From contig DHUT01000088.1 in the NCBI GenBank assembly GCA_002409285.1, positions 11,158-75,157 of the forward strand: DNA of 64,000 bases, written 5' to 3'. Shown in pieces: positions 38,046 to 62,178 of this stretch. This DNA is from Firmicutes bacterium UBA5227. GTDB lineage: Bacteria > Bacillota > Clostridia > Tissierellales > Sedimentibacteraceae. The notes below the pieces were generated by a model that was not told where the DNA came from, made no database searches, and saw only the letters and a program-made list of their open reading frames with translations. Each line of letters begins with the position of its first letter. Position 1 is the stretch's first letter. The position numbers and the translations under genes are program-made.

Positions 38046-38061
38046 GAATCAAACTAAACTT

Positions 38062-38097
38062 AAAAAGGATACTGAAATTTTCAGCATCCTTTTTTTT
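38062..38097. terminator. Bidirectional terminator between convergent genes
   Basis: aaaaaggat.ctgaa / ttcag.atccttttt stem with flanking A/T tracts. Confidence 0.85.
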
Positions 38098-38833: not shown

Positions 38834-39035
38834 AATATCTTAGACATACAATTGTAAACAATTGTCCCCTCCATTTGAACTATAATTTATTATAGCTTAT
38901 TTTAAAATATTTACAATAAAAATATGATATATCAATTATACTCCAAAAATAATAATTGATATTTGTAAAAAAATAATATATACTGTAAGTAAGAAAGTAG
39001 GAATTTACAACTTGCGAAATATAGGAGATGATATT

Positions 39036-39299
39036 ATGTTAGCAGAATTACGTTCAAAATCACAAATCACGATTCCAAAAGAACTTGTTGAAAAACTTGG
39101 TCTTTCTGAAGGTGATAAGCTTGATATTTTTGAGGATAATGGTGTAATCTGCATTATGCCTGTGGTAGTTTATCCAAAAAAATATCTTGATGAACTAAAA
39201 AAAGAGCTTGAACAAACTAAAGTAAAATTAGCTTCTGGTGAACAACCGGTTTTCGATAATGTCGATGCACTTTTTTCAAAGCTGGAGGAAACTCAATAA
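39036..39299 (+). CDS. AbrB/MazE-family antitoxin
   Basis: Start set at ATG 39036 after AGGAGA; KSQITIPKELVEKLGLSEGD swapped-hairpin motif; stop overlaps the next start. Confidence 0.85.
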   Translation: MLAELRSKSQITIPKELVEKLGLSEGDKLDIFEDNGVICIMPVVVYPKKYLDELKKELEQTKVKLASGEQPVFDNVDALFSKLEETQ

Positions 39300-39565
39300 T
39301 GTCGTATCAATTTACATTTACCAGCCGATTTCAGAAACATTACAAATCTTTAACCTCACAGGAAAAGAAACAGCTAATGAACAAGCTTAAATTGCTTGCT
39401 GATAATCCAACACATCCTTCGCTAAGAACCAAGCATATACAGGGAATGGAGGACTTGTTTGAATGCAGCATCAATATGGATATCCGAATCATTTGGTACT
39501 ATGAAGGAAATAAAATGATCATTCTTTTAGATGTAGGACGTCATGATATTTTAAAGCAGTTTTGA
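39299..39565 (+). CDS. RelE/YafQ-superfamily toxin
   Basis: 88 aa; FQKHYK, HPSLRTKHIQG, DIRII, LLDVGRHD. Confidence 0.8.
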   Translation: MSYQFTFTSRFQKHYKSLTSQEKKQLMNKLKLLADNPTHPSLRTKHIQGMEDLFECSINMDIRIIWYYEGNKMIILLDVGRHDILKQF

Positions 39566-39589
39566 AATAACTGCTTTATTTTTTTGCAG

Positions 39590-40363
39590 TCATACCGCTT
39601 CAGAAAATGAACCGTAATTTCTTGAATTGTATACTTCGAGCAGCTCTTTCTCTGTAATGTCTTTGTTCCTCACATCAAGTACAACCTCACCCTTGTTGAG
39701 CATCACTATTCTGTCAGAATATTTAATAGTATCCTTAATGTTATGAGAAATCATCATTGTTGTTATTGACTGAGTTTTTATAAGCTCCTGTGTCTTCTCC
39801 ATTACCAGCCTTGATGTCTTTGGATCAAGAGCTGCCGTGTGTTCGTCAAGAAGAAGAAGTTCCGGCTTGTTCAATGTTGCCATAAGCAATGAAAGAGACT
39901 GCCTTTGCCCTCCCGAAAGAAATTTAACCTCTGTGTCTAATTTGTTCTCCAGTCCCAAATCCAAAGTCCTGAGTATTTCCCGGTATTGCTCAATGCTGCT
40001 TTTCTTTATCAGACCTCGCAAAGTAAACTTCCGGCATTTCTTATTTGATAGACTTATATTCTCCAGTATGGTCAAAGAAGGAGATACTCCCATTGAAGGA
40101 TTCTGATGCACTCTGCCTATGAACCTGGCTCTTTCGTTTTCTTTCAATTTATTTATGTTTTTCCCATTTAATATTACATTCCCTTTTTCCGGGATCAGTA
40201 CTCCGCTTATTATGTTAAACAATGTGCTTTTGCCACATCCGTTTGCACCCAGTATCCCCGTGCATTCACCCTTGTTTATATGAAGACTGAAGTCACTGAA
40301 TATTACCGCTTCATTTTCTGTCCCTTCATTAAAACTTTTTGATATATTCTTAATTTCCAGCAT
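39590..40363 (-). CDS. ABC transporter ATP-binding protein (aromatic amino-acid uptake type)
   Basis: GANGCGKST, LSGGQRQ, LLDEHTAALDP. Confidence 0.93.
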   Translation of the reverse strand: MLEIKNISKSFNEGTENEAVIFSDFSLHINKGECTGILGANGCGKSTLFNIISGVLIPEKGNVILNGKNINKLKENERARFIGRVHQNPSMGVSPSLTILENISLSNKKCRKFTLRGLIKKSSIEQYREILRTLDLGLENKLDTEVKFLSGGQRQSLSLLMATLNKPELLLLDEHTAALDPKTSRLVMEKTQELIKTQSITTMMISHNIKDTIKYSDRIVMLNKGEVVLDVRNKDITEKELLEVYNSRNYGSFSEAV

Positions 40364-41270
40364 TTACTTTTCCTCCTTTTTTTAGCTCTGATGCTTCCTT
40401 TAATGTAAAGATTTTTGATTTAACTGATTTTCTTATTCCATCCCCAAATGTATTATAGCTTAAAAATCCTATTACTATTATTGCATTTATTGCCTTCAAA
40501 TCTGTAGGCTCCAGCCCCAGGTCTATTGCCACCGCACCAATGAGTTTATACACTAATGCTCCGATTATTGCTCTTGTAGTATTTTTAAGCTTTTTGTTCT
40601 TTAATATGGTATCCCCCACTATTATTGAAGCTATTGCCACCACAATTATTCCCGTTCCCATGGTTATTTCCGCAAACCCCTGATATTGCGCCATCATTGC
40701 TCCGCTTAACGCAACGAGACCGTTTGAGAGCATGAGCCCGATTAACTTATATTTATTTGAGTTTTCGCCAAGGGATTTAACCAGCGTTTCGTTATCTCCT
40801 GTTGCAATCAGCAGGTATCCTATTTCTGTTTTCAAGAACATGTCCATCAATATTTTAACTGTCAAAACGATGATTATTAAAACTATTAACACCCCTGTTC
40901 CTTCAAATATGGCAAATATGGATCCATAATCAAAAAGTCCCACATTTGATTTGCCGTTTAGCCTCAGGTTTACAGAATACAAAATTGTCATTGTCAATAT
41001 TCCTGATAACAATGCCTTTATTTTAAGCTTTATATTTAACGTATAGGTTATGAGTCCTGCCAGCGTTCCGAATAAAAACGCCAGTATTGTACTTGTTGCA
41101 GGGCTCAGCCCTGAAGTTACAAGCTTAGCAAATACAAATGCCCCCATGGGAAATGTTCCTTCTACCGACATATCTGCAAAATCCAGTATTTTAAATGTTA
41201 TTGTGACTCCTATGGCAAGAACAGCAAATATTAAGCCCTGTTCCATTGATGTTAAAAATAATGTGTTCAT
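40350..41270 (-). CDS. ABC transporter permease (aromatic amino-acid uptake type)
   Basis: FADMSVEG, LLSGIL, GLMLSNGLVALSG. Confidence 0.9.
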   Translation of the reverse strand: MNTLFLTSMEQGLIFAVLAIGVTITFKILDFADMSVEGTFPMGAFVFAKLVTSGLSPATSTILAFLFGTLAGLITYTLNIKLKIKALLSGILTMTILYSVNLRLNGKSNVGLFDYGSIFAIFEGTGVLIVLIIIVLTVKILMDMFLKTEIGYLLIATGDNETLVKSLGENSNKYKLIGLMLSNGLVALSGAMMAQYQGFAEITMGTGIIVVAIASIIVGDTILKNKKLKNTTRAIIGALVYKLIGAVAIDLGLEPTDLKAINAIIVIGFLSYNTFGDGIRKSVKSKIFTLKEASELKKGGKVNAGN

Positions 41271-41349
41271 AATACCTCCCTTTGTAACAACTGCTGAGCG
41301 ATTGCAATGTGCCTCAACACATTATCATCAACGCTCAGCCATTGTTCAC

Positions 41350-42375
41350 CTATTGCTCCACCAGCTCTGCCCCTTCAAATGTCTTATTATCCTTTAAAAA
41401 CCCCAGTGCTTCCGCAGTTTTAACGTTGACCTTTTTTACTAATTTATCAGAAGATTGCACAGGTATATCTGCAACGCTTTTTTTATCAACTAATATTTGT
41501 TTTGCAATTACAGCCGACTGCTTCCCAATTTCGTAAAAGCTTATTCCTTTTGAAACCATAATTCCCTCATCCACGTGAGATCCATCCGCCGATATGGTTA
41601 TCATCTTATTGTCCAATGCAAGTTTAGCCACAAGTGACATTGCGGATGCAACCATGTTGTCTGTAATTATATACAGACCTTCAGCCTTTTTAGAAATTGT
41701 ATTCATTGCCTGAGGAATATCATTAACCGAAGTAATCCCAACAGTTTCGACTTTAAGGCCAAGCTCCTCTGCTACTTTTTTCGTCTCTTCAACCTGAACT
41801 TCAGAATTTGATTCTCCTATGTTGTAGATTATCCCTATTGTCTCTATATTTTCTTTAAGCTCTTTGAACATCTCCAGGTTTTCCTTGATTGGTGCCGCAT
41901 CCACAACACCTGTAATATTGCTATCGGTAGTATTCAAATCTATTACAAGCTGTGAAAATACCGGATCCGTCACTGCTGTAAACACCATTGGTATATCTGT
42001 CCCTGTAATAGCCTGCTTTGCTGTCTGTGCAGACAGTGTAGCTATGGCAAATATTAAATCAACGTCCTCTTTAACAAACCTTTCGGCAATCATTTGTGCA
42101 TTGGCAATATCCCCTTGTGCGCTTTGATCCAGAAATTCCACATTCACTCCCTGGTTTTTCATTTCATCAATAAAACCCTGCTTTGATGCATCCAATGCCG
42201 GATGCTCCGCCAGCTGTGATATTCCTATTGTAAAAGCTGCGCCCTCCTTATTTTCCCGGTTTTCCTGTTCTGAAGACTGTGCCGTACCCTGCGCACAACC
42301 CGTTAAAAGCATTGCAGTTACCATCACTAATGATGTAACTTTTTTAATTAAATTTAATTTCATAATATCCTCCAA
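41350..42375 (-). CDS. ABC substrate-binding lipoprotein, TrpX-like family (probably tyrosine)
   Basis: Lipobox LTGC, HPALD, VFTAVTDP, ESNS; downstream of a T-box. Confidence 0.88.
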   Translation of the reverse strand: MEDIMKLNLIKKVTSLVMVTAMLLTGCAQGTAQSSEQENRENKEGAAFTIGISQLAEHPALDASKQGFIDEMKNQGVNVEFLDQSAQGDIANAQMIAERFVKEDVDLIFAIATLSAQTAKQAITGTDIPMVFTAVTDPVFSQLVIDLNTTDSNITGVVDAAPIKENLEMFKELKENIETIGIIYNIGESNSEVQVEETKKVAEELGLKVETVGITSVNDIPQAMNTISKKAEGLYIITDNMVASAMSLVAKLALDNKMITISADGSHVDEGIMVSKGISFYEIGKQSAVIAKQILVDKKSVADIPVQSSDKLVKKVNVKTAEALGFLKDNKTFEGAELVEQ

Positions 42376-42437
42376 AGTAATTGATGTAATTGATGTAATT
42401 GATTATTTTATATTAACTTTGGCCAAAAGTTATATAC

Positions 42438-42705
42438 AAAAAGTCCCTATAAGCACATATGTGCTTATAGGGACGAAATCTTCCGCGGTACCACCCTGAT
42501 TATGATATCATTATAATATCATCACTCTTCGGGGTCTAACAACCCCTAACCCTGTAACGAAGGTTCTCGTGTCCGCCTACTCGTTATCTTTCAGCAAACC
42601 TGCTCAGCAGTGTATATTATATTCCTCTGTCCTTGGCTCTCAGCACCCGCCAATTCTCTGTAAACGTCTGAAATATTTTTCTCTGCTTCAACGCTTTAAA
42701 CTTAT
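42438..42705 (-). ncRNA. T-box riboswitch, probable Tyr (UAC) specifier
   Basis: T-box AGGGTGGTACCGCG at 42484-42497, long terminator stem gtccctataagcac/gtgcttatagggac plus T-tract, stem I AGAGA and GGTGCTGAGA motifs; TAC at 42612-42614 in the putative specifier loop. Confidence 0.9.
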
Positions 42706-42713
42706 TGATTGCT

Positions 42714-42742
42714 ATCATAAACCAAAAAATATCCTTTGTCAA
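42714..42742 (-). promoter_or_regulatory. SigA promoter of the T-box leader
   Basis: TTGACA-N17-TATGAT. Confidence 0.8.
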
Positions 42743-42848
42743 CAACTTTTTTTAGAAATTTTTATCTGTAAAAAAGGAAGGCTCTTTAATGAACTGTATT
42801 TCAATTGCTTATAGAACACTGCTTATTATAATCAAACAGGCAGATTCT

Positions 42849-45800
42849 TTACATACTTTCTTTTACACCAAACTTTGTTTTTAAATCTTCATAGCTGTTT
42901 ACCCAGTCGAATTTAACCAGTTCGGAAACAGCTTTGAAATGTAATTTGCCGCAACGTATTTTGTTATTTTCGACAGATGTTAAATCTTTTTCTAATTTGT
43001 CAGCTTTTGTTTCTACGATAAAGTAAACGCCTACTGCACCTGCTTCAAGACCCTCCTTTCTACAAACGATCGCCCAATCCGGAGAATAGTTTCCGTAGGG
43101 AGTATCTATTACAAAACCGCCTTTTTTAAGTTTAGTAAATAAGATGACATTATCATTAGCTTCCAGTTTTTCAGCAAATTTCCTTTCTCCTTTGCTGTCC
43201 ATTTTATAATATTCATTTAAGGCATTTTTCCTGTTTGGATTGGACTTGAAGACACGCCACTCATCACGGAAGTCTTCCTCAGCTATGGTATCTGTAGCAA
43301 AAATCTGTCCCTCATCAAGCTCATAGCCTTCGATGACTTCATAGGAAAAGATACTTGATGCTTTGGAGTCATTTAATTTCACCAGAATCTTCTGGGTTAC
43401 TCTGTCGAGAACGTCCTGAAAATTTAGAGCCTCTCTTTTTTCAATGCCTTTTAATATATTAAAAATGGTAAGACGAGGTAACATGGTATGGTACATGATA
43501 TAGTTTACAATTTCAAAATCTCCCTTTGGGGTAACCTTCATACCCACATCAATATCAAAGGTTTTATCTCCCGACTTTTCCATTTCAAACATCTGGGCAT
43601 CATTAAATTCACCCCTGCCAGTTGTAATATTCACTGCTCTGGTAACTCTAAAGTATTGTAAGTATGAATTTATTTCCTTTATACAATCAGAAACAAACGT
43701 GTCCTTATTCACGTTGCATTTATAAAGAGTGCGTTTGGTCAAATTGCTGCTCAGCCCCAGATAGATTTGCTGAAACTCCTCTTCAGAAACAAATGCACGG
43801 ATAGTATTTACATAGGGTTCATTATCTCCGTTATTTATTTCAATGCGGCGAGATCCTTTTTCTACCATCAGCTCTGCAAAATTTTCTTTCAGCTTTACAG
43901 AATGTTCTTTCAGTATTTCATCTTCAAAAACAATGTCTTCAAGAAGTTTAGTTGTTTGCTCTACATTTTTATGTAGAATATTATTACTGTCAAATACGCC
44001 TTTACCCATCAGCTCCTGCTTAAAGGTATCGACCAGCTCCGCAGTTATTTTTTCCTTTGGAACACCTGCCTTTTCAAGGGCAACGGTCAGAATATCAGAG
44101 GTTACTTCATTCTTGTTGAAATTCATACTTTGGTTGAAGTCTTCCTGAAGTACCCTTGAGAAATTCTCGTAGCTGTCGTTTGCAATGACAGTCAATTCAT
44201 TGATATCTGTATCCAGACAGCGGTTACCTGTAATATCTACCGGAAGCCTTAAGCCACGACCTATTTCCTGCTTTTTTGCAATATCAGAGCTACCGTTTTT
44301 TAGTGTACAAAGTGTAAATACATTGGGATTATCCCAGCCTTCACGAAGTGCTGAATGGGAAAATATAAAGCTGAGTGGTTCTTCAAAGGAAATAAGCTCA
44401 TCTTTTCTTTCAAGAATTAAGCTGATACCACGGTCGATATCTTCCTGGGATTTAGCCTTAACGTCCAGCTCGCTTTTATTATCATCCCAGTCTTCAATTT
44501 CAACTTCATTATTCTTTTTATCAATGGCGAAGTAACCTTCACGCACCTTTAAACCATTCTGATACTCAGGGAAATACTCTTTGTACTTTGAAAATTGTTT
44601 TTCGTAGCCTTTAATTGCACTTTGATACTCTTCATCAAAGATACGCAGGTATTCACCACGTCCATCAGGTCGAGTCTTATCACGAACTTTACTAACTGCA
44701 TCTACAAAGAACAAGGTTAAAGTTTTTATCTTTTTGCCGCTTTTTAAAATTGCAAACTGTTTTTCAAGATGATTTCTAATAGCAAGACGAATCTGAATAC
44801 GGGTAGCCTCACTATCCTCAAGCCCATTATTGCTTTCTCCAAGCTCCAAAATTATAGTGCCATCTGTAGTGGCAACCTTCAAAGGTTTAAGCTTATGTGG
44901 TTCTTCAACGATACGCATATTGCGATACTGTACCAAACCACCGGATAAATCCTCTAAAGATGTATTTGCTGATACATCAAAGGTTTTAAAGCGAATGGAA
45001 TCTCCTTGTTTTTGGGAGAACATCTCAATCCTTGCTTTTAGGTCCTTTGTGAAAGCTATATATCGAATGTAGGGATAATCTCTTTCAATAACCCCATTTA
45101 CTGTTTTAACTGTAATCTTCTTAACCAAGTCATTTTTATATGCAGCATAGGAATCTAACTTATAAATTTGATTATACAGTTTCTTATGGGTAGCAGAATA
45201 ACGAAGTACAAACAAAGGTTCAATCTCATCAATAGCTTGCAATGATTTAGATTTTTTACCTTTTTGTCCCTCAATTTTTTGTGGTTCATCAATGATGACA
45301 ATGGGCTTTATGTACTTGATATCCTCCCATAAAATCTGTCCGTATTCATCTTCGCTGCGGATTTTGTTTGTATCTTTATTAAAAGCCTGAATGTTGAGAA
45401 CACAAATGCTTAAGTCATTGGTTTCCACAAGGCTTGAGCTCACCTTTTTCGGGTTATTGCTGTCATAAATAAAACTGTGCTTTGATAAATCCACATCATA
45501 GAGCCTTTTGAAATGGTCTTTTAACTGGTCGATGGACTTTTCTACGCCTTTACGGATTGCAATACTTGGCACAACAATCATAAACTTTTTGAAGTCATAT
45601 TCTTTATATAGTTCTAAAATGGTACGCAAATACACATAAGTTTTACCTGTACCTGTTTCCATCTCGATGGTAAAGTTATTATTTGCAAGCTCATTATCTG
45701 CAAATAACTTGTTATCTAACTGAACCTTTCTTAGATTTTGAAGTAATCTACTGCCTGTTACAATGCTTTGGTTTCTTACAGGGTCACCCTCATCAAGCTT

Positions 45801-45932
45801 TTTGATACGTCTTGGACGATATATACCGTCTATTTGACGAGAAAGTCCTTTGAATAAGTCCACAGTAGAGTGGATTGCTTTTAATTGATAATCTAATTCA
45901 TCATCAAACTGAAATGCAATTCTTTTTGCCAC
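42849..45932 (-). CDS. res: Type III restriction endonuclease Res subunit
   Basis: METGTGKT, IIDEPQ, YSATH, LREGWDNPNVF, QEIGRGLRL, C-terminal SPDW...IVETK PD-(D/E)xK motif; GTG start. Confidence 0.93.
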   Translation of the reverse strand: MAKRIAFQFDDELDYQLKAIHSTVDLFKGLSRQIDGIYRPRRIKKLDEGDPVRNQSIVTGSRLLQNLRKVQLDNKLFADNELANNNFTIEMETGTGKTYVYLRTILELYKEYDFKKFMIVVPSIAIRKGVEKSIDQLKDHFKRLYDVDLSKHSFIYDSNNPKKVSSSLVETNDLSICVLNIQAFNKDTNKIRSEDEYGQILWEDIKYIKPIVIIDEPQKIEGQKGKKSKSLQAIDEIEPLFVLRYSATHKKLYNQIYKLDSYAAYKNDLVKKITVKTVNGVIERDYPYIRYIAFTKDLKARIEMFSQKQGDSIRFKTFDVSANTSLEDLSGGLVQYRNMRIVEEPHKLKPLKVATTDGTIILELGESNNGLEDSEATRIQIRLAIRNHLEKQFAILKSGKKIKTLTLFFVDAVSKVRDKTRPDGRGEYLRIFDEEYQSAIKGYEKQFSKYKEYFPEYQNGLKVREGYFAIDKKNNEVEIEDWDDNKSELDVKAKSQEDIDRGISLILERKDELISFEEPLSFIFSHSALREGWDNPNVFTLCTLKNGSSDIAKKQEIGRGLRLPVDITGNRCLDTDINELTVIANDSYENFSRVLQEDFNQSMNFNKNEVTSDILTVALEKAGVPKEKITAELVDTFKQELMGKGVFDSNNILHKNVEQTTKLLEDIVFEDEILKEHSVKLKENFAELMVEKGSRRIEINNGDNEPYVNTIRAFVSEEEFQQIYLGLSSNLTKRTLYKCNVNKDTFVSDCIKEINSYLQYFRVTRAVNITTGRGEFNDAQMFEMEKSGDKTFDIDVGMKVTPKGDFEIVNYIMYHTMLPRLTIFNILKGIEKREALNFQDVLDRVTQKILVKLNDSKASSIFSYEVIEGYELDEGQIFATDTIAEEDFRDEWRVFKSNPNRKNALNEYYKMDSKGERKFAEKLEANDNVILFTKLKKGGFVIDTPYGNYSPDWAIVCRKEGLEAGAVGVYFIVETKADKLEKDLTSVENNKIRCGKLHFKAVSELVKFDWVNSYEDLKTKFGVKESM

Positions 45933-45945
45933 GGCTACTTCCTCC

Positions 45946-47826
45946 TTATATAAATTCTACAGTGTATGATTTTTTCTCAAGTCCAGAATTCCTTTCAATG
46001 AGGTTTTTAAGCCTTCTAAAGGTTTCATCCTTTAAATTGATATCGTCTTTAAAAGCAGAATCCCTAAAGATAAATTTAATAGGCAGTGGGTCAAGAGCAG
46101 CTATTTTATCAATTAATTTCTCTGTAATTTCTGTTTCAAGGCAAATCAAGTATGCACTGCCATATAAGTAAGTCCTGCTTCCAATATGGGTTAAAGTTTC
46201 TAAAGTAGAGGATAGTGGTACATCCTTCTGGCGGAGCATCACTTCATATACAACATCAATATCATTAAAGCCTATAGTAAAGTCAGCAAGGTCAGGAGTG
46301 TGTGACATTGTACTGGCATCAAGCTGTCCTAATTCGTCATACAAGTTCCATTTGATATTGGTATCAGCAGTTCTAAAGACTTTAAAGCCAATATCAGGCA
46401 CTTGTTTTGGTTCTTCGCCAATTTTAAGCTGTGCATTGGCAGTTTCAATTTCTTGTTTGATCTTTTCACCTGCGCGTCGGATACGTTCTTTGCCAAGTTC
46501 ACATATATCTTTGTAACCTGCTTTGTAAGCTTCTGAGCTTTCGTCGGTTTCTTCGGGTAGCTGAACCATAATAAATTTTCTGTTCCCTCCGTCCTCACCA
46601 TTTAGTTGCATAACTGCGTGGGCGGTAGTGGCAGAGCCAGAAAAGAAGTCGAGTATCAAATCATCGTCTTGAACTGTAAAGAACGTTGCCCCAAGAATTA
46701 ATTCTTTTAGTAAAGAAATAGGTTTTGGGTAGTCAAAATATTGTTCTAAACCTAATACTTCTAAGTCCTTTACTCCATTTGCAGACAAATGTTTAAGTAC
46801 ACTGTAAAATTTTGACGCATCTTCATTTACATTACGAAGCTTTCCAACAATATGCATACCATTACCTTTAGGTAAAAGGACATATTCCCCATTTTTGATT
46901 TTTTCATCTATCTCCATCAAGGTTTTTTCCCCTTTATATTCGAGGATTTCCTCATAGTGACAATTTCCGTATTTTCCAAATTCTTTACGTAGCCAATCCT
47001 CTTGTATCCAGTATTTCACACCATCTTTCTCAATAATTTTTCCTCGAATATCCTTAGGCCGTCCTAATGGAGTAAAAGAACCTATACTTTTTGCATATAC
47101 AAATAAATAATCATGCCCTTTTATCACTTGTTTTGCAAGTCCACCACCTTCTGCACGAATAACCATTAGTTCTGCAACTTTATTATTGTCTCCAAATACT
47201 TCATTTAAAATTTTTATTGCATTTGCTTGCTCATTATCATCAATACTAATAAAAATAACTCCATCGTCGGTGAGTAAGTCTTTTGCAACTTTAATCCTCG
47301 GATACATCATATTCAACCAATTAGCATGAAAACGGTTAGATGATTGTTGGTTTTTCTGCAAAGGATTCCCTTCATCATCACGAGTACCTTCTGCTATATC
47401 ACTTTCCTTACTGTTCATGGTAAAATTATCATTATATACAAAATCATTTCCCGTGTTATAGGGTGGATCTATATATATCATTTTAATAGCACCATAATAG
47501 TTTTGTCGAAGCATTTTCAAAACTTCAAGGTTATCCCCCTCAATATAAAGATTTTCGGTAGTATTTGGGTTTTTGCTATCTTCTTCAATATATTTGAGCG
47601 TTCTGTTATATACATCCTCCTGAGCTTTTTTCTTTGCATCCTGCTTGCCTGCCCAAGTAAGTTCATATTTTTCTTTGCCCACTTCTTCAAACTGTCCAAG
47701 TTCTTCCTTTAATGCCTCAAAATCAACCTGTCCGTCTTTAACGGCAGAGGGGAATAGCTGTGCTAACAGCTTTACATTATCCCCAACAATGTTGTTAATC
47801 TCCTGTGGCACTTTTACATAGTCCAT
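45946..47826 (-). CDS. mod: Type III restriction-modification Mod subunit (adenine methyltransferase, beta-class motif order)
   Basis: YIEGDNLE, YIDPPYNTG, FISIDDNE, PKP, DFFSGSATT. Confidence 0.95.
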   Translation of the reverse strand: MDYVKVPQEINNIVGDNVKLLAQLFPSAVKDGQVDFEALKEELGQFEEVGKEKYELTWAGKQDAKKKAQEDVYNRTLKYIEEDSKNPNTTENLYIEGDNLEVLKMLRQNYYGAIKMIYIDPPYNTGNDFVYNDNFTMNSKESDIAEGTRDDEGNPLQKNQQSSNRFHANWLNMMYPRIKVAKDLLTDDGVIFISIDDNEQANAIKILNEVFGDNNKVAELMVIRAEGGGLAKQVIKGHDYLFVYAKSIGSFTPLGRPKDIRGKIIEKDGVKYWIQEDWLRKEFGKYGNCHYEEILEYKGEKTLMEIDEKIKNGEYVLLPKGNGMHIVGKLRNVNEDASKFYSVLKHLSANGVKDLEVLGLEQYFDYPKPISLLKELILGATFFTVQDDDLILDFFSGSATTAHAVMQLNGEDGGNRKFIMVQLPEETDESSEAYKAGYKDICELGKERIRRAGEKIKQEIETANAQLKIGEEPKQVPDIGFKVFRTADTNIKWNLYDELGQLDASTMSHTPDLADFTIGFNDIDVVYEVMLRQKDVPLSSTLETLTHIGSRTYLYGSAYLICLETEITEKLIDKIAALDPLPIKFIFRDSAFKDDINLKDETFRRLKNLIERNSGLEKKSYTVEFI

Positions 47827-47895
47827 TTGTTATTCCTCCATTTATCTAATTAATCTATAAATTACTCATTTTTGTACTTGTTTTGGACGTTCATG

Positions 47896-47937
47896 CTATA
47901 AAGCAGTTGTTCGGAATTTCCGAACAACTGAAACTTC
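47896..47937 (-). pseudogene. Probable scar of a RhuM-family gene, coinciding with a perfect 27-bp palindrome
   Basis: Minus strand reads EVSVVRKFRTTAL*; palindrome cagttgttcggaa-t-ttccgaacaactg at 47904-47930; RhuM assignment is from memory of the VVRKFRTTA motif. Confidence 0.45.
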
Positions 47938-47941
47938 GGTT

Positions 47942-48658
47942 TTATACCTTATCCAATTCGATTATAGCTTGTCTGATTTCTTGATTCAGCTTCATTTTTT
48001 CACTGTTAGATATAGATTTTTGCACCTTTTCTTTATTGCGTGCAACAGCACAGAGGAGGGTGTATACCTCTTTTTGTCTGTTAATGCTGTACCATATAGG
48101 TTTCTCTAAAAAGCTCTTTGCCTTTGCATATACTTTATCATTCGTTAAGATGTAAGCTCGCAGATACATTTCAAAATAAAAGGTAGCTTTGTTGTCTTTG
48201 TTTTTGATATTGTCATAGGCAAGTTCCCTTAGCAAATTGTTTTTATCAGAGCTGGGTAGGACAGTGGGGTAGACAGTTGTAAGAACCTTGTCTGTAACCA
48301 CAATCTGTGTTCTGTCATTCTGATTCAATCGTTTTAGTGCAAAGGAGTATACCTCGTTGCTGTTATCGTTTAGTCGTAGAACACAAGGAGACTTTATTAT
48401 CTCCTGATACATATTTGCAATAAAGGACGCCTTTTTCATATCAACAAGTTCTATGTCATAATACTGAATAACTTGGCAATTGTATTCATCATTCACCAAA
48501 GATGGTATACCTTCTCCCATTATCTGATAGCTTAATATAACGCTTTTTACATTATCCCTGATTTTCTTTCTTACATCAGGCTTCAATACCTTAGGTATGA
48601 AATCCTTAATTGGCAGTTTTTTGCCAACTTTATATTTCTCCGGTAAGTTAAACATCAT
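47942..48658 (-). CDS. DUF4391-like hypothetical protein
   Basis: MFNLPE start, size and position between the SNF2 helicase and Mod match my recollection of DUF4391 loci; start overlaps the helicase stop. Confidence 0.6.
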   Translation of the reverse strand: MMFNLPEKYKVGKKLPIKDFIPKVLKPDVRKKIRDNVKSVILSYQIMGEGIPSLVNDEYNCQVIQYYDIELVDMKKASFIANMYQEIIKSPCVLRLNDNSNEVYSFALKRLNQNDRTQIVVTDKVLTTVYPTVLPSSDKNNLLRELAYDNIKNKDNKATFYFEMYLRAYILTNDKVYAKAKSFLEKPIWYSINRQKEVYTLLCAVARNKEKVQKSISNSEKMKLNQEIRQAIIELDKV

Positions 48659-51600
48659 TCCACCACCAAAAATGAAATAAGTTCAAAATCATCCGCTGTT
48701 TCATCTGCAAAGTCATTATTAAATCCACCGAAATCAAACGTAGTTTGGAAGGCTTTTTCTTCTTCAGCACCTTTAATAGAATTAACTGCCTTGTTCAAAA
48801 GGTCGGAATAAAACTTCATGTCATTTGTATTATTTGTTTTAACAAGGAATTGATCAAATAATGATTGAACCGGCTTATCTTTGCCATAGCAAAGTTTTCT
48901 AAAAAGTTTGATAACCTCGCGTGCTTTTCCACTTCCATAGAGAACTTCACCCTTATTATCTAAATAAATCAAATAATAGGGATACAAGGAGCTGTCAGAC
49001 TTTGGCTTTTCATCTTGGTTACTATGTTTAAAGCAGAATATAACGCCTTGCTTTTCTCCATCAGTAACAGAATATATCCCACTTGGTACTTTCTTTATTG
49101 ATGGATTATTTTTTACATACTCTGATAATTCATACAAGTATTCGTTCATATTAAGGTCGGTTAAGGAGATGTTTTCATTAGCATCCTCAATATCAATAAC
49201 TTCATCTTTTAACCGTTCTAATTGCCTTTTTCTAAAATTAAAATCATTCATTTCAGGAGACAGGAAATCCTCATCACCTGTAGACACAATATTTAGTGTT
49301 GTCATTTTACCTTTAACTCGCTGCTCCAAGCCTAAATACTCGTTAAGCTCAAGATTCGGGTAGAAGTTAATCATCTGAATACATTCATTGGTGCTTCCAA
49401 TACGGTCAATACGGCCAAATCTTTGTATGAGCGAAACAGGATTCCACTGAATATCAAAGTTGATTACTGTATCACAGTCCTGTAAATTTTGTCCTTCTGA
49501 AATACAATCTGTACCTATAAGAATATCTATCTGTTCATCATCTGGAATATCTTTTTTCATTTTTGATTTTGGAGAAAATGCACATAGAACAGAGTTAAAT
49601 TCGCTATCCACATTTTTGTTTGTTGTCTTTACTCCTCTGCCCGTAACGCAAGCAGTGTCTAAGTGAACCTTTTTAAGCTCTTCTGCAATCTTCTGATAAA
49701 TATAGTCTGCTGTATCTGAAAAAGCAGTGAATACAAGGATTTTTTTGTTACCGCTATTATAAGGTGTTTGTGTTACCTTTTTAATAATTTCATCTTGCAG
49801 AGTACGGATTTTTAAATCTCTGTTTTCTTCTAATATGCATTTTGCTTCATTATAAATTTTTTCAAGAATAATTCTGTCGCCCTCCAAATCGTACAGATAA
49901 TCTTTGATACGTAAGTGGGCAACTTCAATTTCATATTTTCCTTCTAAATATTCATATTCTTCATCTGCTGTACCTGTTTCTTCGTCAACCTGACCGCCTT
50001 TATTAAGTACCTCCATGGTTCTGTCTATTCGCTCCATCAATCTCCGAATGGTTTCTGCAAATGAATATACGGAACTTTCCATGCGTTTAAAGAGGTTAAA
50101 GCGGTGCATGACAATCATACCCTTGGACTGGGTTTGAAAATCCATTTTTCCGCCGTGTTTTCCTTTTAAACTGTATTTCTCAACATATAATTTCTGGTAT
50201 TCACTTTTAATATATCTTGTTGGTGTATATACCGACAATTCAAGGGACTCCAGCAATTCATTTGTATCAGCAAACTTCAATAGCTTTTCTTGGCAGTCAA
50301 TTTCAGGGCGTCTGGTTATCGGTTTATTCTTGTTAGGGAATTTACCGACACTGCTATTTCCGTAATAGCTGGTGATATGCTTTCTGCTTCTTGAAATTGT
50401 CATAAGCTCAAGCAGTTTATAAAATTCTGATGGAAGACTGTCAAGCAAGTCATTTTTATTATGGTTTGGTACAGTTTGCCATTGATTAATAATAGTTGAA
50501 GACTTCCTAAGTAGGTTCTCTACGCTGGAGATACCTTCATCTTCAAAAGCAAAATCTCTATCACCTGTTATTATGCTAATCTGATTTTTTAGATCTACCA
50601 AACTATTGTTAACAGGTGTAGCAGAAAGGAGTAGCACCTTGGTATTATTTTTACCTCTTTTTATTACGTCCTGCATCAAACGTGCATACCTTGTCATTAT
50701 TAGCTGGTCATTATCATCATAACGATCATTCCTATTCCTAAAATTATGGGATTCATCTATTACAACAAGGTCATAGTTACCCCAATCAAATCTTTTCAGG
50801 TCTTGTCCAGATTGAGACATGCCTTTATATCTTGATAAATCTGTATGAAACATAATCTTATAATTGAATGTTTCATTTAACAAACTATCCTTATATGTAC
50901 CTCTAAAAGAGTTCCAGTTATCATATAGCTTTGCAGGGGTAAGAACAAGTACATTATCCATCTTTATTTCAAAGTATTTTATGACTGCAAGGGCTTCAAA
51001 GGTTTTACCTAATCCAACAGAATCAGCAATTATACAGCCACCATATTTTTGCAGCTTTTGAATTGCTGATACAACACAGTCCTTCTGAAAATCATAAAGA
51101 GATTGCCATATTTGAGTTTTTTTAAATTTCTCGCTATCTCTTTCAAATCTTTCTACACCACTGTCTATTTGATATCCAAACAGCTCATTCAGGGTAAAAT
51201 AATATAAAAACTCAGGGGAGTGCTCTTTATAAATAAAAGATAAACTTTGTAATAAATCCTCTTTATAATCAGAGGATACCTGCTCGTTAAACCATATTTG
51301 ATTGAAAGTATTCAGTGCTGAAAGTATTTGCTCTTTATCCATTGTTCCATTGAGCATCGTATCAAAATTAATATTTCTAAAAGCATTCCTGCTTTTCTTT
51401 AGTGTTACCTCCAAAGAAGAGGAACCTTGTATCATAAAATCATCGTCTATAATGATTATATTACCACCTATTTTAACTTTAGGATTTGCTTTTTTTACAT
51501 TAACATTTGCTTTGATAAAATCGTGCATGGCTTTTGCTTTTGAAAAATGTTTTAATTTGTTTTTTTCAACGATATCATAAGAGTTGTATAAAATATCCGT

Positions 51601-51828
51601 TGGAGCCATTTCAAACTCATGGGATATTTCATTTTTTTCAGGCACAAATTTTGTATCCCTGATTACAAAATTTATTTCTTTTACATTTTTTAAGTTTTGT
51701 TCAAGCAAGGCAAAGACAGATAGTGTTAGCTTATCATTTACGATATTCACTACCGCATTTTTTTTCGTTTTAAGCACATAATTAATTTTTTCAATCATTT
51801 GCTCTGTTGAAGCAATTACATTTCCCAT
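48655..51828 (-). CDS. SNF2-family helicase with degenerate PLD-like N-terminal domain
   Basis: IIADSVGLGKT, VVIDESHN, LLSATP, SEGQNLQD, QRFGRIDRIG. Confidence 0.9.
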   Translation of the reverse strand: MGNVIASTEQMIEKINYVLKTKKNAVVNIVNDKLTLSVFALLEQNLKNVKEINFVIRDTKFVPEKNEISHEFEMAPTDILYNSYDIVEKNKLKHFSKAKAMHDFIKANVNVKKANPKVKIGGNIIIIDDDFMIQGSSSLEVTLKKSRNAFRNINFDTMLNGTMDKEQILSALNTFNQIWFNEQVSSDYKEDLLQSLSFIYKEHSPEFLYYFTLNELFGYQIDSGVERFERDSEKFKKTQIWQSLYDFQKDCVVSAIQKLQKYGGCIIADSVGLGKTFEALAVIKYFEIKMDNVLVLTPAKLYDNWNSFRGTYKDSLLNETFNYKIMFHTDLSRYKGMSQSGQDLKRFDWGNYDLVVIDESHNFRNRNDRYDDNDQLIMTRYARLMQDVIKRGKNNTKVLLLSATPVNNSLVDLKNQISIITGDRDFAFEDEGISSVENLLRKSSTIINQWQTVPNHNKNDLLDSLPSEFYKLLELMTISRSRKHITSYYGNSSVGKFPNKNKPITRRPEIDCQEKLLKFADTNELLESLELSVYTPTRYIKSEYQKLYVEKYSLKGKHGGKMDFQTQSKGMIVMHRFNLFKRMESSVYSFAETIRRLMERIDRTMEVLNKGGQVDEETGTADEEYEYLEGKYEIEVAHLRIKDYLYDLEGDRIILEKIYNEAKCILEENRDLKIRTLQDEIIKKVTQTPYNSGNKKILVFTAFSDTADYIYQKIAEELKKVHLDTACVTGRGVKTTNKNVDSEFNSVLCAFSPKSKMKKDIPDDEQIDILIGTDCISEGQNLQDCDTVINFDIQWNPVSLIQRFGRIDRIGSTNECIQMINFYPNLELNEYLGLEQRVKGKMTTLNIVSTGDEDFLSPEMNDFNFRKRQLERLKDEVIDIEDANENISLTDLNMNEYLYELSEYVKNNPSIKKVPSGIYSVTDGEKQGVIFCFKHSNQDEKPKSDSSLYPYYLIYLDNKGEVLYGSGKAREVIKLFRKLCYGKDKPVQSLFDQFLVKTNNTNDMKFYSDLLNKAVNSIKGAEEEKAFQTTFDFGGFNNDFADETADDFELISFLVVE

Positions 51829-51878
51829 GTCTGTTCATTCCTTACTATAGTCTACTTTATATAACAAATACCTACTTT

Positions 51879-51907
51879 ATTATAGATTAAACATCATAAA
51901 TTTACAA
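51879..51907 (-). promoter_or_regulatory. SigA-type promoter upstream of the helicase-DUF4391-mod-res block
   Basis: TTGTAA-N17-TATAAT. Confidence 0.6.
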
Positions 51908-51964
51908 GATTTTTAACAAATGCATAAATAGAATCACACGTTTGTGAGATAAATGTTAGTAGCT

Positions 51965-52041
51965 ACACCGTGGGGTTCAAGTCTTTTCTGCGGCACTAAA
52001 TTATAAGCCTGAAAAGATGTGATATCCTTTCAGGCTGTTTT
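51965..52041 (+). repeat. att-like diverged copy of the tRNA-Leu 3' end plus its terminator (inverted relative to the tRNA gene)
   Basis: Manual alignment to 62127-62049 (minus strand): 67 of 79 columns identical. Confidence 0.85.
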
Positions 52042-52188
52042 AATTTTATATATTTTATACTTCCATATAATAATCATACGAACATCATTTATCAATTGTT
52101 AAAATAAGTTTACTCTGATGCAGGTTAGCTGCTTTTATTTCAATTTTTCCAAGGAAATCTTCCATTGCAGATTTGTTGCCAAGATTTT

Positions 52189-52216
52189 TAAAGGAATGCC
52201 AAGCGGCATTCCTTTA
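52189..52216 (-). terminator. Terminator hairpin after pckG
   Basis: aaaggaatgcc / ggcattccttt. Confidence 0.75.
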
Positions 52217-52221
52217 TTTTT

Positions 52222-54015
52222 TTATGCTAATGATGGTTCTGCATAATTATTTAAATTGTTTTTTAATGTTGTCAGTTCATCCTTTAATTCTTCCGGCAGT
52301 GTATTTCCTATTTTGCCATAGAATTCTTCAATACTTTCTATATCTTCAATCCAGGAATCTTTATCTATAGTAAGCAGCGAGTTCATCACCTCTTCCGAAA
52401 CATCCAGATCCTCTGTATTTATGTCTTCAACCTTTGGAATAAATCCTATGGGAGCTGTGTCCGCTGTTACATTGTTTTCACATCTGTTGATTATCCATTC
52501 CAACACTCTGAAGTTTTCACCATAGCCCGGCCATAAGAATTCACCGTCAGAATTTGTCCTGAACCAATTTACGTGGAATATCTTAGGCGGATTACTCATT
52601 TTCTTGCCCATTTCAATCCAATGTCCAAAATAATCACCCATGTTGTAGCCACAGAACGGAAGCATTGCCATTGGATCTCTTCTTACAACTCCAACCTTTC
52701 CGGCGGCTGCTGCAGTGGTTTCAGATGCAAGAGTCGAGCCTACAAATACACCATGCTGCCAGCTTCTTGATTGATATACCAGTGGAGCTGTCTTTGCACG
52801 TCTACCTCCGAATATTATTGCAGAAATAGGAACTCCCTCCGGTGCTTCCCACTCTTTTGATATGCATGGGCAGTTTTTAGCAGGAGCTGTAAATCTGGAA
52901 TTAGGATGTGCTCCCTTTTCCTTTGATGTTTTTCCGTTCCACGGATTTCCCTGCCAATCAAGAGCATGTTCAGGAGGATTGTCATCAAATTTTTCCCACC
53001 AAATGGTATCATCATCCAAATTATATGCCACATTAGTAAATATGGTATCCTTCTTTGTAGACATCATAGCGTTATAATTTGATTGTAAATTTGTTCCCGG
53101 AGCAACTCCAAAGAACCCTGCCTCTGGATTAATAGCCCAAAGCCTTCCGTCTTCTTTTATCTTAAGCCATGCGATGTCATCGCCAACTGTCCATACCTTG
53201 TAGCCTTTTTTCGTGTATATTTCAGGAGGTATAAGCATGGCAAGATTTGTTTTTCCGCAAGCTGACGGGAAAGCAGCTGCCATATATTTTACTTCTCCCT
53301 TTGGATTTTCTATTCCAAGTATGAGCATGTGTTCTGCCATCCATCCTTCTTTCCAGCCCTGGTAAGAAGCAATACGAAGTGCAAAGCATTTTTTCCCAAG
53401 CAACACATTTCCGCCGTATGCAGAATTACATGACCAGATTGTATTATCTTCAGGGAAGTGGAATATATATCTTTTATCAATATCAAGGGTACATTTTCCG
53501 TGTAGTCCTCTTACAAAATCGTTAGAATCACCAAGTACGTCCAGAACTTTTTTACCTATTCTTGTCATAATGCTCATGTTTACGACTACATATATAGAAT
53601 CTGTAACTTCAATACCAATTTTTGAAAATGGAGAGCCTACAGGACCCATAGAATACGGTATAATGTACATGGTTCTTCCGTTCATTGAATTATCAAATAT
53701 TTCTCTACCTAATTCATAAGCTTCTTCGGGACTCTTCCAATTGTTAGTCGGTCCAGCATTTTCTTTATTTTTTGAACAGATATACGTCTTGTCCTCCATA
53801 CGAGCAACATCATCTTTTCGTGAGCGATGATAATAGCAACCCGGATATTTTTCCTGATTTAACTTTTTAAATTCACCCGTTTTGCATGCTTCATCTTTAA
53901 GCATTTTCAATTGTTCTTCGCTTCCGTCAATCCACATTACTTTTGAAGGTTTAGTTATGGATACTACTTCGTCTATCCATTTTAAAACATTTAAATTTGA
54001 AGTTAAGCTTTGCAT
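52222..54015 (-). CDS. pckG: Phosphoenolpyruvate carboxykinase, GTP-dependent
   Basis: YGGNVLLGKKCFALR, WMAEHM, AFPSACGKTNLAM, VGDDIAW, HPNSRF, FGGRR, DPMAMLPF. Confidence 0.97.
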   Translation of the reverse strand: MQSLTSNLNVLKWIDEVVSITKPSKVMWIDGSEEQLKMLKDEACKTGEFKKLNQEKYPGCYYHRSRKDDVARMEDKTYICSKNKENAGPTNNWKSPEEAYELGREIFDNSMNGRTMYIIPYSMGPVGSPFSKIGIEVTDSIYVVVNMSIMTRIGKKVLDVLGDSNDFVRGLHGKCTLDIDKRYIFHFPEDNTIWSCNSAYGGNVLLGKKCFALRIASYQGWKEGWMAEHMLILGIENPKGEVKYMAAAFPSACGKTNLAMLIPPEIYTKKGYKVWTVGDDIAWLKIKEDGRLWAINPEAGFFGVAPGTNLQSNYNAMMSTKKDTIFTNVAYNLDDDTIWWEKFDDNPPEHALDWQGNPWNGKTSKEKGAHPNSRFTAPAKNCPCISKEWEAPEGVPISAIIFGGRRAKTAPLVYQSRSWQHGVFVGSTLASETTAAAAGKVGVVRRDPMAMLPFCGYNMGDYFGHWIEMGKKMSNPPKIFHVNWFRTNSDGEFLWPGYGENFRVLEWIINRCENNVTADTAPIGFIPKVEDINTEDLDVSEEVMNSLLTIDKDSWIEDIESIEEFYGKIGNTLPEELKDELTTLKNNLNNYAEPSLA

Positions 54016-54304
54016 TTTACACTCCTATAAATTAATTATGTTATACTATATATTTATTTTTTAAATATGTGTTATGATATTGATTTTTCAAATTTATTAT
54101 ATCTTGTCTTAATATTACTTTCAATATCCAAAAAAACTTTCGTTTTATTTAAGCTTTTCTCTGTATTTACCTAAATATTTTAAGAGTATTCTCCATAAAC
54201 CTAACATATTTAATTTGTTAAATAATTGCAAAATGATATGCTAAACCCTCACATCAGACAAAAGTATTAAGTAAATGTTATACTGATAAAAATCACCATC
54301 TCCT

Positions 54305-55672
54305 TTAAGTGTAATTTTTATGCCTTTGTTTTCCAAACAATATATATGAGACTGCCATATTTATCAGCGGACATATATAACACAACACTGCATAGGGTGC
54401 ATATTGTATTGCCGTAATGCCCATGATTGGTTTTATTAAAAGTGCGTTTACATTCCAAGGCATAAGAGGTGCCACAATTACTCCCGTATCTGAAATTGTC
54501 CTTGCCAATACAGTTTCATCCATACCCATCTCCTTATACTTTTCATTCAGAATTTTTGCCGGAACTATTATGCCGGAAGTCTGATCGCAGGTAGCAACAG
54601 TGAGGAGTATACTCATAAGTCCCGTTCGCCTTATTAGAGTCATTTTAGAATTAATTCCATTAATTAGTTTTCCTATTACCGGCATAAGTATATTACCCTT
54701 TTCAAACAGCTGTATCAATGCATAGGCAGCAACTACCATACAAATTGTCTCAACCATTGAAATCATGCCTCCGCTTACCAAAAGCCTGTTAAGTTCCGGT
54801 GAAGGAGTATTACCATGATACCCAAACACTAATGAGGTTAAAACTTCTTTTACTGTAGCTCTCTGAAAAACAATGCTGAGCACGGAGCCAACACCAATGC
54901 CTATTGAAAAAGTTATTATTGAATTCAGCCCTGCAATGGAAAGCCCCAGTACGATAACGGGTAGTATCAACAAAAAAGGAGAGACATTAAAGCCTGATGC
55001 TATTGCATCCTTATACAATAAAAGTTTGCTGTAATCTCCGGACGTATATTTTAAACCAATTAAATAGTAAATAACTGCTGTTATAATTATTGTAGGTATT
55101 AGTGTTACAACTAAGCTTTTAAAAATTTCCTTGTAGCTTTTGTTTGTTGCTTTCATCAATAGATTTACAAGTCCAGACAGCGGAGATATTTTATCTGCTA
55201 TAAATGCACCCGAAACCAGCATTCCAATAATCACGTTCTGAGGTATACCCAGCCCCATTCCTATACCGCTCAAAGAAATACCTACGGTACTCATAGTACC
55301 CGCTGCTGTTCCCATGAATAATGAAATTAGTGACATTATTAAAAACGAGGCAAACAAAAAATTGACACCCTCCATATATGTAAACCCATAATGCATTATT
55401 GTCGGCACAACACCTGAAGAAAGCCATATAGATGTTGTTGCACCTATAAACAATATAACTACAATAAGGTTCTTTATTTCAAGTATCGAGTTTAATATTG
55501 TCTTTAACAAATCCGACAGACTATATCCGCTTTTAATCAATACTGCCAAAGTAAAAACTATTCCCATGACAAATCCGATAAATAAGGGAATTGACAACAC
55601 TAATGAAAAAAATATAAATCCCAGGCTGATTAACATTATTGCCATAGGATTAAGAGCTAACCTTTTATCCAC
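54305..55672 (-). CDS. NhaC-family Na+/H+ antiporter-like transporter
   Basis: GTAAGT, SGAFIADKISPLS, RTISDTG, PLMPWN. Confidence 0.85.
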   Translation of the reverse strand: MDKRLALNPMAIMLISLGFIFFSLVLSIPLFIGFVMGIVFTLAVLIKSGYSLSDLLKTILNSILEIKNLIVVILFIGATTSIWLSSGVVPTIMHYGFTYMEGVNFLFASFLIMSLISLFMGTAAGTMSTVGISLSGIGMGLGIPQNVIIGMLVSGAFIADKISPLSGLVNLLMKATNKSYKEIFKSLVVTLIPTIIITAVIYYLIGLKYTSGDYSKLLLYKDAIASGFNVSPFLLILPVIVLGLSIAGLNSIITFSIGIGVGSVLSIVFQRATVKEVLTSLVFGYHGNTPSPELNRLLVSGGMISMVETICMVVAAYALIQLFEKGNILMPVIGKLINGINSKMTLIRRTGLMSILLTVATCDQTSGIIVPAKILNEKYKEMGMDETVLARTISDTGVIVAPLMPWNVNALLIKPIMGITAIQYAPYAVLCYICPLINMAVSYILFGKQRHKNYT

Positions 55673-55949
55673 ATTACACCTCTGCTAAAAAATTAAGTAA
55701 TAAATTATTGGCAGAAACACTGCCGAAAGCATATTGTTTGTCTTTACGTGTTTGATATCCCACTGCTTCATTGCAATACACTTTTGTTAATATATATTAA
55801 CATCTACCATAAAGGAATGCAAATATTTTATTATAACCTTTATAGCTTATTAACTGCCCTGTATCTCTTAGAATCAAATAAAAAAGTTATTCAGCTCCTT
55901 TATTATCCTCGAACTGAATAACCTTGCAATATTTATAATACTATCTTTA

Positions 55950-61993: not shown

Positions 61994-62095
61994 AGAGGAC
62001 TAAGTATTTCAAGGAAAGTGATGCCTTTCAAGATAAAATTCAAATATAAAAATAGACTGAAAAGATTATCACATCTATTCAGTCTTATAATTCTA

Positions 62096-62178
62096 TGCCG
62101 CAGAAGGGACTTGAACCCCCACGGTGTTGCCACCAACGGATTTTGAGTCCGTCACGTCTGCCATTCCATCACTGCGGC
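62096..62178 (-). tRNA. tRNA-Leu (anticodon CAA), CCA not encoded
   Basis: Acceptor stem GCCGCAG/CTGCGGC, anticodon arm ACGGA-CTCAAAA-TCCGT, long variable arm, GGTTCAAGTCC T-arm. Confidence 0.96.

Follow-up and report, generated by a model that had tools for sequence, protein, structure and literature searches.

Do a SNF2-type helicase gene and a small DUF4391 gene that stand ahead of a Type III restriction-modification (R-M) gene pair belong to that R-M system, or do they simply lie beside it? The question is raised by a 64,000-nucleotide (nt) stretch of contig DHUT01000088.1 from Firmicutes bacterium UBA5227 (this whole stretch is called the window below), where four genes lie head to tail. 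In 5' to 3' order they encode the helicase (hereafter HEL), the DUF4391 protein, the methyltransferase Mod and the nuclease Res, with lengths in amino acids (aa):

48655-51828, minus strand: HEL, 1057 aa; SNF2-family ATPase of the PADLOC family 'C3a139, HKD+Snf2'
47942-48658, minus strand: DUF4391 protein, 238 aa; starts within the end of HEL, with a 4-nt overlap (48655-48658)
45946-47826, minus strand: Type III Mod, 626 aa; beta-class N6-adenine methyltransferase
42849-45932, minus strand: Type III Res, 1027 aa; SF2 ATPase with a C-terminal PD-ExK nuclease

In classical Type III enzymes, Mod and Res suffice (PMC4490356). An earlier note on this DNA had proposed that HEL and DUF4391 form a dedicated accessory module of Mod and Res, and the comparison across genomes bears this out, as no full-length copy of either gene was found outside a Type III locus.

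The gene structure is likewise as that note had described it: the open reading frame (ORF) calls agree with four intact, co-oriented genes, the coordinates with the 4-nt HEL/DUF4391 overlap and a 13-nt mod-res gap (45933-45945), and every motif named as intact in HEL, Mod and Res was found in the translations. The spacer between DUF4391 and Mod is 115 nt long, and no frameshifts, internal stops or slippery repeats were detected in the four genes.

Linkage of HEL and DUF4391 to Type III Mod and Res

We searched 401 genomes of the phylum, evenly drawn, with counts taken from simple ORF calling; the figures below refer to these searched genomes. Regions of approximately 20 kb around 34 substantial hits to PF14335 (the DUF4391 family) were compared together with 11 loci from a narrow-pattern scan of GTDB genomes, and the ORFs of the fetched loci were labelled by comparison with the four proteins of the window. 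PF14335 was present in 35 of the 401 genomes (approximately 9%). All loci with enough contig showed the same gene order, i.e. HEL, DUF4391, zero to three variable defence genes, Mod, zero or one variable gene, and Res, with gaps of -17 to +48 nt between HEL and DUF4391. The four-gene arrangement recurs in all DUF4391 loci where it could be determined, which is far beyond chance.

There were 31 full-length HEL orthologues, all scoring at least 569 bits and each adjoining a DUF4391 hit. Full-length SNF2 genes outside the unit scored at most 136 bits against HEL, and the scores in between belonged to contig-end pieces and to pseudogene fragments with stops. Apart from fragments, not a single full-length HEL or DUF4391 gene lay outside a Type III locus in the 401 genomes, and no HEL-DUF4391-Mod locus without Res was seen. 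Homologues of Res were found in 60 genomes, where approximately 19 loci (two of them cut by a contig edge) were plain Mod-Res loci without the pair; about two thirds of the sampled loci related to the window Res carry HEL and DUF4391. Thus, since the pair was never seen without Mod and Res and these can occur without the pair, the dependence is one-way, of the pair on Type III R-M. The earlier note had considered the possibility that the pair occurs mostly without Type III R-M, and we found the opposite (0 such cases versus approximately 19 Mod-Res loci without the pair). Two of the plain loci, L079 (92% identity over 73 aa) and L085, still have part of the HEL N-terminus just 5' of Mod, indicating that these loci arose by deletion of HEL-DUF4391.

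The unit is also transferred as a block onto plasmids across several phyla. HEL orthologues were found on 122 PLSDB plasmids from hosts including Listeria, Enterococcus, Bacillus, Escherichia, Acinetobacter, Lactococcus and Vibrio. The plasmid records that were opened agree in the order of the four genes. They are a conjugative Weissella plasmid, an Escherichia coli IncFIB plasmid, a Listeria plasmid, whose annotation has no more than 'hypothetical protein' at the DUF4391 position, and plasmid pMsp65 of Acinetobacter sp. NEB149, where an IS1-family element lies between Mod and Res (L098:14100-14801), at a position used by the variable genes. The E. coli version is present in 10 of 5426 complete E. 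coli genomes. A tblastn search of phage records and plasmids with DUF4391 gave no matches, the query being a fast-evolving protein; the HEL query found the plasmid copies.

Of the 35 complete loci, 20 have extra co-oriented genes (cargo) 3' of DUF4391, between Mod and Res, or at both positions, and these genes are frequently joined by 4-nt or 1-nt overlaps. They encode DUF1883-TIR, RhuM, Schlafen/AlbA_2 (with or without HATPase_c_4), YhcG/DUF1016 nuclease, AAA_13, AAA_21/AAA_15, SIR2 with HerA, Abi_C and trypsin-like protease proteins, a protein with a weak HEPN match and several proteins without any Pfam match. Both slots are empty in the unit of the window. In its closest relative, from Clostridium algidicarnis DSM 15099 (Res 90% identical), a Gabija-like pair, with an OLD-TOPRIM ATPase of 631 aa and a UvrD helicase of 615 aa, is located between HEL and DUF4391 (L001:6235-9961), and this is a third insertion position of the operon.

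Some loci without DUF4391 have other large genes in front of Mod. A different SNF2 helicase (971 aa, with neither a PLD domain nor a DUF4391 partner) lies directly 5' of Mod at L083:2739-5654 and L080:7794-9110. Since this other family precedes DUF4391-free Mod-Res genes, the combination of SNF2 and Type III genes looks recurrent, and the two loci suggest a second, independent arrangement of this kind. At L078:1003-4842, a 1279-aa protein without any Pfam hit is encoded ahead of a Mod-RhuM-Res locus that has neither HEL nor DUF4391.

The four proteins and their relation to known systems

HEL is more than a plain SNF2 protein, having a decayed PLD domain and a conserved C-terminal domain in addition to the ATPase core:

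51124-51828, minus strand: N-terminal domain (approximately aa 1-235); derived from a PLD/HKD nuclease, catalytically degenerate
49351-51099, minus strand: SNF2 ATPase core (approximately aa 244-826), with an insertion between both RecA lobes
48658-49350, minus strand: C-terminal domain (approximately aa 827-1057); conserved, no recognised relative

The core matched SNF2-rel_dom (2.6e-08) and Helicase_C (9.5e-16) in Pfam and contains the ATPase motifs GLGKT (272), DESH (358), SAT (402) and QRFGRIDR (802). The best solved relatives of the core are the ATPase lobes of Snf2, Sth1, CHD1L and RapA. Over nearly its entire length (protein 1-1056, model 1-947 of 948) HEL matched PADLOC model PDLC01075, 'C3a139, HKD+Snf2', at 3.2e-224. 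The N-terminus of the window HEL itself gave no Pfam match; among 23 homologous N-termini, PLDc_2 was matched in three (best 3.5e-11) and RE_NgoFVII in one (2.3e-07). Where PLD nucleases have HxK(x)4D(x)6GSxN, the window HEL reads GGN-IIIID...QGSSS. The catalytic HxK is gone in 36 of 39 homologues, kept in two and replaced by H-x-R in one; HxK...GSxN is retained in two of the 39.

The C-terminal domain (approximately 245 aa) shows 57% mean column identity across divergent homologues. Its AlphaFold2 model was poor (predicted local distance difference test, pLDDT, 49.5) with an alignment of 19 rows, the depth of which was limited as the relatives listed were all at least 77% identical. The nearest outgroup of HEL is a stand-alone 1062-aa PLDc_2-SNF2 protein (L095:1274-4462, G306 contig 5; PLDc_2 5.4e-10, 6e-42 to HEL) that lies apart from Type III genes; it possibly resembles the ancestor of HEL.

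The DUF4391 protein matched PF14335 with an E-value of 2.3e-48 and 165.5 bits (cut-off 29.9), covering model positions 1-229 of 232, and neither PADLOC nor NCBIfam has a model for it. The AlphaFold2 prediction, based on an 86-sequence alignment (pLDDT 94.7, predicted template modelling score 0.91), has an alpha/beta N-terminal half with six strands and a helical C-terminal half. A profile search against PDB sequences found no relatives among solved structures, and the predicted fold appears to be one without a known relative. We considered the conserved residues D98, E102 and K109 as a PD-(D/E)xK site and dropped this reading, since the spacing is non-canonical and the nuclease fold was not recovered. 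A profile search of 1.84 billion representatives gave 266 proteins, nearly all of them stand-alone and approximately 240 aa long, and fusions to HEL, Mod or Res therefore offer no clue to contacts. One of these matches, P0376 (3951 aa), has 12 separate stretches matching profile positions 24-76 (E 2e-08), and it is probably a protein of repetitive sequence that matches by chance, or one whose repeat derives from the N-terminal part of DUF4391.

Mod was matched by N6_N4_Mtase in Pfam (9.2e-29) and by PADLOC MTase_III (1.9e-165). Its DPPY motif (120) lies ahead of FFSGSATT (395), i.e. motif IV before motif I, which is the beta-class order. Res was matched by ResIII (6.1e-17) and RE_endonuc (2.1e-24) in Pfam and by PADLOC REase_III (7.9e-187), and it contains TGTGKT (94), IIDEPQ (215), SAT (246), QEIGRGLR (555) and PD (951)...ETK (974-976). 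In their domains, their motifs, the position of mod directly 5' of res and their common orientation, the two genes agree with the sequence definition of Type III R-M. By activity, Type III R-M is defined by hemimethylation at an asymmetric site and by ATP-dependent cleavage, for which two unmethylated sites in inverse orientation are required. In NCBIfam, none of the four proteins was named above the cut-offs, and Res scored 272.8 bits (5.4e-81) against PRK15483, the cut-off of which is 564.

The unit resembles EcoP15I and EcoP1I (Mod2Res) in that Mod has DPPY and FxGS, Res has the SF2 ATPase and PD-ExK, mod and res are tightly spaced, and the PADLOC matches are full-length. It differs from these two in being led by HEL and DUF4391, which never occur apart from a Type III operon, and from classical Type III systems in that its Res is under the PRK15483 cut-off and has DEPQ as Walker B. 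HEL and DUF4391 are strictly linked to the Type III clade of the window, and close Mod-Res relatives persist without them.

Several other systems combine a Snf2-type ATPase with a methylase. Type-2 'BR' (BREX-related) systems consist of a DUF499 ATPase, an N6-methyltransferase, an HKD-Swi2/Snf2 helicase and DUF3780 (PMC12839542). The window unit shares with them the HKD/PLD-Snf2 fusion, a small alpha+beta protein, an N6-methyltransferase, a second large ATPase and embedded auxiliary effectors, but its methylase is a Type III Mod, its second ATPase is the nuclease-bearing Res, and the HKD motif of HEL is dead. No Pfam match to DUF499 or DUF3780 was found in the four genes or their flanks, and HEL matched PADLOC HmaA in the helicase C lobe only (3.1e-25). 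Class 1 DISARM likewise has an SNF2 helicase (DrmD), a PLD-type domain (DrmC) and an N6-adenine methylase (DrmMI) in one operon, whereas the window unit is without DrmA and DrmB (DUF1998) and has a Type III Res. HEL scored 139 bits against the DrmD model NF038317 (cut-off 610). DISARM and Type-2 BR were ruled out as the identity of the unit because of the low DrmD score and the lack of DrmA/DrmB and of DUF499/DUF3780.

HEL is a full-length member of the family C3a139 'HKD+Snf2', which was listed as a candidate Type III CRISPR accessory cluster on the basis of four cases near CRISPR type III cassettes (Shah et al., PMC6546367). Unlike PLD nucleases, it lacks the catalytic HxK, and it is accompanied by DUF4391 and Type III Mod/Res wherever a locus was examined; there were no cas genes among the annotated ORFs around the unit (37335-56849). 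The lactococcal AbiR is an Snf2-containing module that is toxic without the methylase of the linked R-M system LlaKR2I (PMC13064643). The likeness, drawn from the published description, lies in a Snf2-type ATPase with a restriction-endonuclease-like N-terminus held in check by a linked methylase, whereas AbiR has sigma-70-like and ParB-like partners and a Type II R-M system.

Our literature search, which left subscription journals outside, found nothing on the four-gene unit or on the function of DUF4391, in agreement with the earlier note, which knew of no functional characterisation of such a unit. DUF4391 turned up in just two listed papers, neither of them relevant, and one mention of 'DUF4391' is a misprint for DUF7941.

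Setting of the unit in the window

Three further features are located in or directly upstream of the unit:

51879-51907, minus strand: promoter-like site of sigma-70 type, TTGTAA-17-TATAAT (consensus 10/12), 51 nt 5' of the HEL start codon
47904-47930, minus strand: perfect hairpin with an 11-bp stem and a 5-nt loop (cagttgttcgg-aaatt-ccgaacaactg), inside the DUF4391-Mod spacer
51960-52045, plus strand: inverted copy of the tRNA-Leu(CAA) 3' half and its downstream hairpin, directly upstream of the promoter-like site

The first of these had been described earlier as a single clear SigA-type promoter. The site exists at 51907-51879, yet it is a consensus match in an AT-rich region where 39 such matches were observed versus 38.3 expected from shuffles. 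Since matches are no commoner than in shuffled sequence, the site is a plausible but undemonstrated start of transcription. The hairpin has no T-tract 3' of its stem and occupies the position where relatives hold cargo genes; it could be an operator, an element of RNA processing or RNA stability, or a recombination scar.

The third feature is 76% identical over approximately 86 nt to 62045-62130 (minus strand), the tRNA-Leu(CAA) gene itself being 62096-62178 (minus strand). This partial copy is a possible old integration scar from the arrival of the unit. It is att-like, yet it lies in inverted instead of direct orientation.

The upstream neighbour of the unit is a GTP-dependent phosphoenolpyruvate carboxykinase gene (52222-54015) with a terminator hairpin. 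Downstream are ABC transporter genes (39590-42375) under a T-box leader (42466-42700, minus strand; Rfam RF00230, 127.5 bits), which has its own promoter-like site (42742-42714) and terminator hairpin (42474-42443); Res, ending at 42849, is without a terminator of its own ahead of this leader. A gene pair for a MazE-type antitoxin and a YafQ/ParE-like toxin (39012-39565, plus strand) follows just past the ABC transporter. With housekeeping genes on both sides, the unit is a lone insert outside any larger defence island. Fermentation metagenomes contain this locus too, with flanks identical in gene content.

Possible working of the unit

We propose that the unit is an expanded Type III R-M system, where Mod and Res are served by the obligately dependent HEL and DUF4391 and where a tethered motor would strengthen or broaden restriction; in our judgement, this reading has an even chance of being correct. 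SNF2 proteins move along duplex DNA and displace bound proteins. In the proposed mechanism, Mod, with its DPPY and FxGS motifs, would methylate one strand of an asymmetric site and so mark self DNA, and Res, with its SF2 ATPase and PD-ExK, would stay the nuclease. HEL would serve as an ATP-driven double-strand DNA translocase, carrying out motor or remodelling work instead of cutting, and DUF4391 would be the adaptor tethering it to the Mod-Res complex. The HEL motor could in this way supply directed movement along DNA, or remove roadblocks, for an enzyme that would otherwise reach its second site by passive sliding, and the outcome would be wider or stronger restriction. Type III enzymes are described as communicating from site to site via ATP-triggered passive diffusion (PMC4490356). 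We infer from sequence that the proteins associate physically, that DUF4391 acts as the adaptor and that HEL does motor work.

Several observations support this proposal. Since 36 of 39 HELs have lost the HxK and the window Res has an intact PD...ExK, Res is the probable cutter. The pair never occurs without Mod and Res, the nuclease of HEL has decayed with its ATPase conserved, and DUF4391 is coupled to HEL and tracks Res; taken together, this points to an integrated machine. DUF4391 is translationally coupled to HEL, and it co-diverges most tightly with Res. Among 30 complete loci, the distance correlations, which are inflated by physical linkage, were 0.95 for HEL-Res, 0.97 for DUF4391-Res, 0.95 for Mod-Res and 0.92 for HEL-DUF4391 (range 0.88-0.97), and 0.76-0.95 when the clade of the window was left out. 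Mean p-distances range from 0.48 for HEL, the best conserved of the four proteins, to 0.73 for DUF4391, the least conserved. By these comparisons, the unit appears to diverge and move as a block. The clade of the window is well supported; its nine members, from Clostridia and Fusobacteria, are without exception four-gene loci.

Besides the inflation of the correlations by linkage, several results weigh against the tethered motor. Loci with four genes and loci with two are intermingled in the Res tree, whose supported branches require at least 11 changes from one kind to the other, and monophyly of Res from four-gene loci was rejected for this reason; moreover, L045 and L079 encode near-identical Res proteins, one with the pair and the other without it. 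The interleaving and these two loci indicate that Res needs no special adaptation and that the pair is dispensable for the maintenance of R-M. The two accessory proteins also offer few structural clues: Pfam and PDB profile searches with the C-terminal domain of HEL were empty, and Foldseek gave no structural neighbour of DUF4391 in PDB (best E 0.13) or among the predicted viral structures of BFVD (best E 0.014), with a TM score below 0.3 in all cases. Finally, HEL may cut by itself in lineages where its HKD motif is apparently intact (two to three HELs).

According to a second explanation, HEL-DUF4391 would be a separate arm of restriction or interference that has only the methylation mark in common with Mod-Res; it would attack or block unmethylated DNA independently of Res, with Mod guarding the host from both. 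Nuclease-helicase fusions of HKD type are the ancestors of HEL, two of 39 HELs keep HxK...GSxN, and Res is unadapted to the pair. A precedent exists in AbiR, a Snf2-containing system toxic without its neighbouring methylase LlaKR2I (PMC13064643), and HKD-Snf2 with a small alpha+beta protein and an N6-methyltransferase is the architecture of Type-2 BR (PMC12839542). The nuclease motif is gone in 36 of the 39 HELs, however, leaving most of them without an evident effector activity. In addition, no HEL-DUF4391-Mod locus without Res was seen, and the DUF4391 distances follow those of Res at least as well as those of Mod. We therefore regard a separate arm as unlikely.

It could also be that HEL-DUF4391 acts as a guardian or controller, which either senses or counters phage anti-restriction proteins or strips stalled Mod-Res from host DNA, so that self-restriction would be limited and the enzyme recycled, as RapA does with RNA polymerase. 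The pair is dispensable and has been lost repeatedly while Mod-Res persists, and SNF2 proteins typically displace DNA-bound proteins. DUF4391 is the fastest-evolving component (0.73 compared with 0.48 for HEL), which fits an arms-race surface, and the neighbouring slots gather effectors of abortive-infection type (TIR, SIR2-HerA, Schlafen, AAA_13 and Abi_C). On the other hand, no sensor-type domain was recognised, there is no link of DUF4391 to a known anti-restriction target, and the conservation of HEL and its first position in the operon fit a tethered motor equally well. On balance, a guardian role seems rather improbable, slightly more so than a separate arm.

Unrelated defence genes have hot spots of insertion in the R-M operons of this family. 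It is nonetheless very unlikely that HEL-DUF4391 is an autonomous defence system merely inserting beside Type III R-M like cargo, since cargo is diverse and found elsewhere, whereas HEL-DUF4391, fragments aside, was never found elsewhere in the 401 genomes, is always located at the same 5' place and has diverged along with Mod and Res.

A bolder form of the tethered-motor proposal, which we offer tentatively and consider somewhat more probably wrong than right, is that the unit represents a four-subunit hybrid class of ATP-dependent restriction machine, in which an SNF2 translocase docked via a protein of novel fold would drive or license the Type III nuclease, with the operon serving as a two-slot chassis for the recruitment and co-expression of exchangeable effectors of abortive infection. 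Among the classical restriction systems, those of Type III are the least well understood, and the textbook view is that of two-protein machines that slide passively to a second site. If the four-subunit class is real, a large share of the loci counted as plain Type III would work by an undescribed mechanism.

The fixed cargo slots offer a route to new defence genes, and the copies on E. coli plasmids, one of them at L097:3254-12300 on pEC21Z137-115K, make the unit testable in laboratory strains. If the pair alters restriction, PADLOC and DefenseFinder, which consider Mod and Res only, under-describe a common system. The pair would then be relevant to transformation barriers in Clostridia, Fusobacterium and lactic acid bacteria, and the DUF4391 fold would have its first function.

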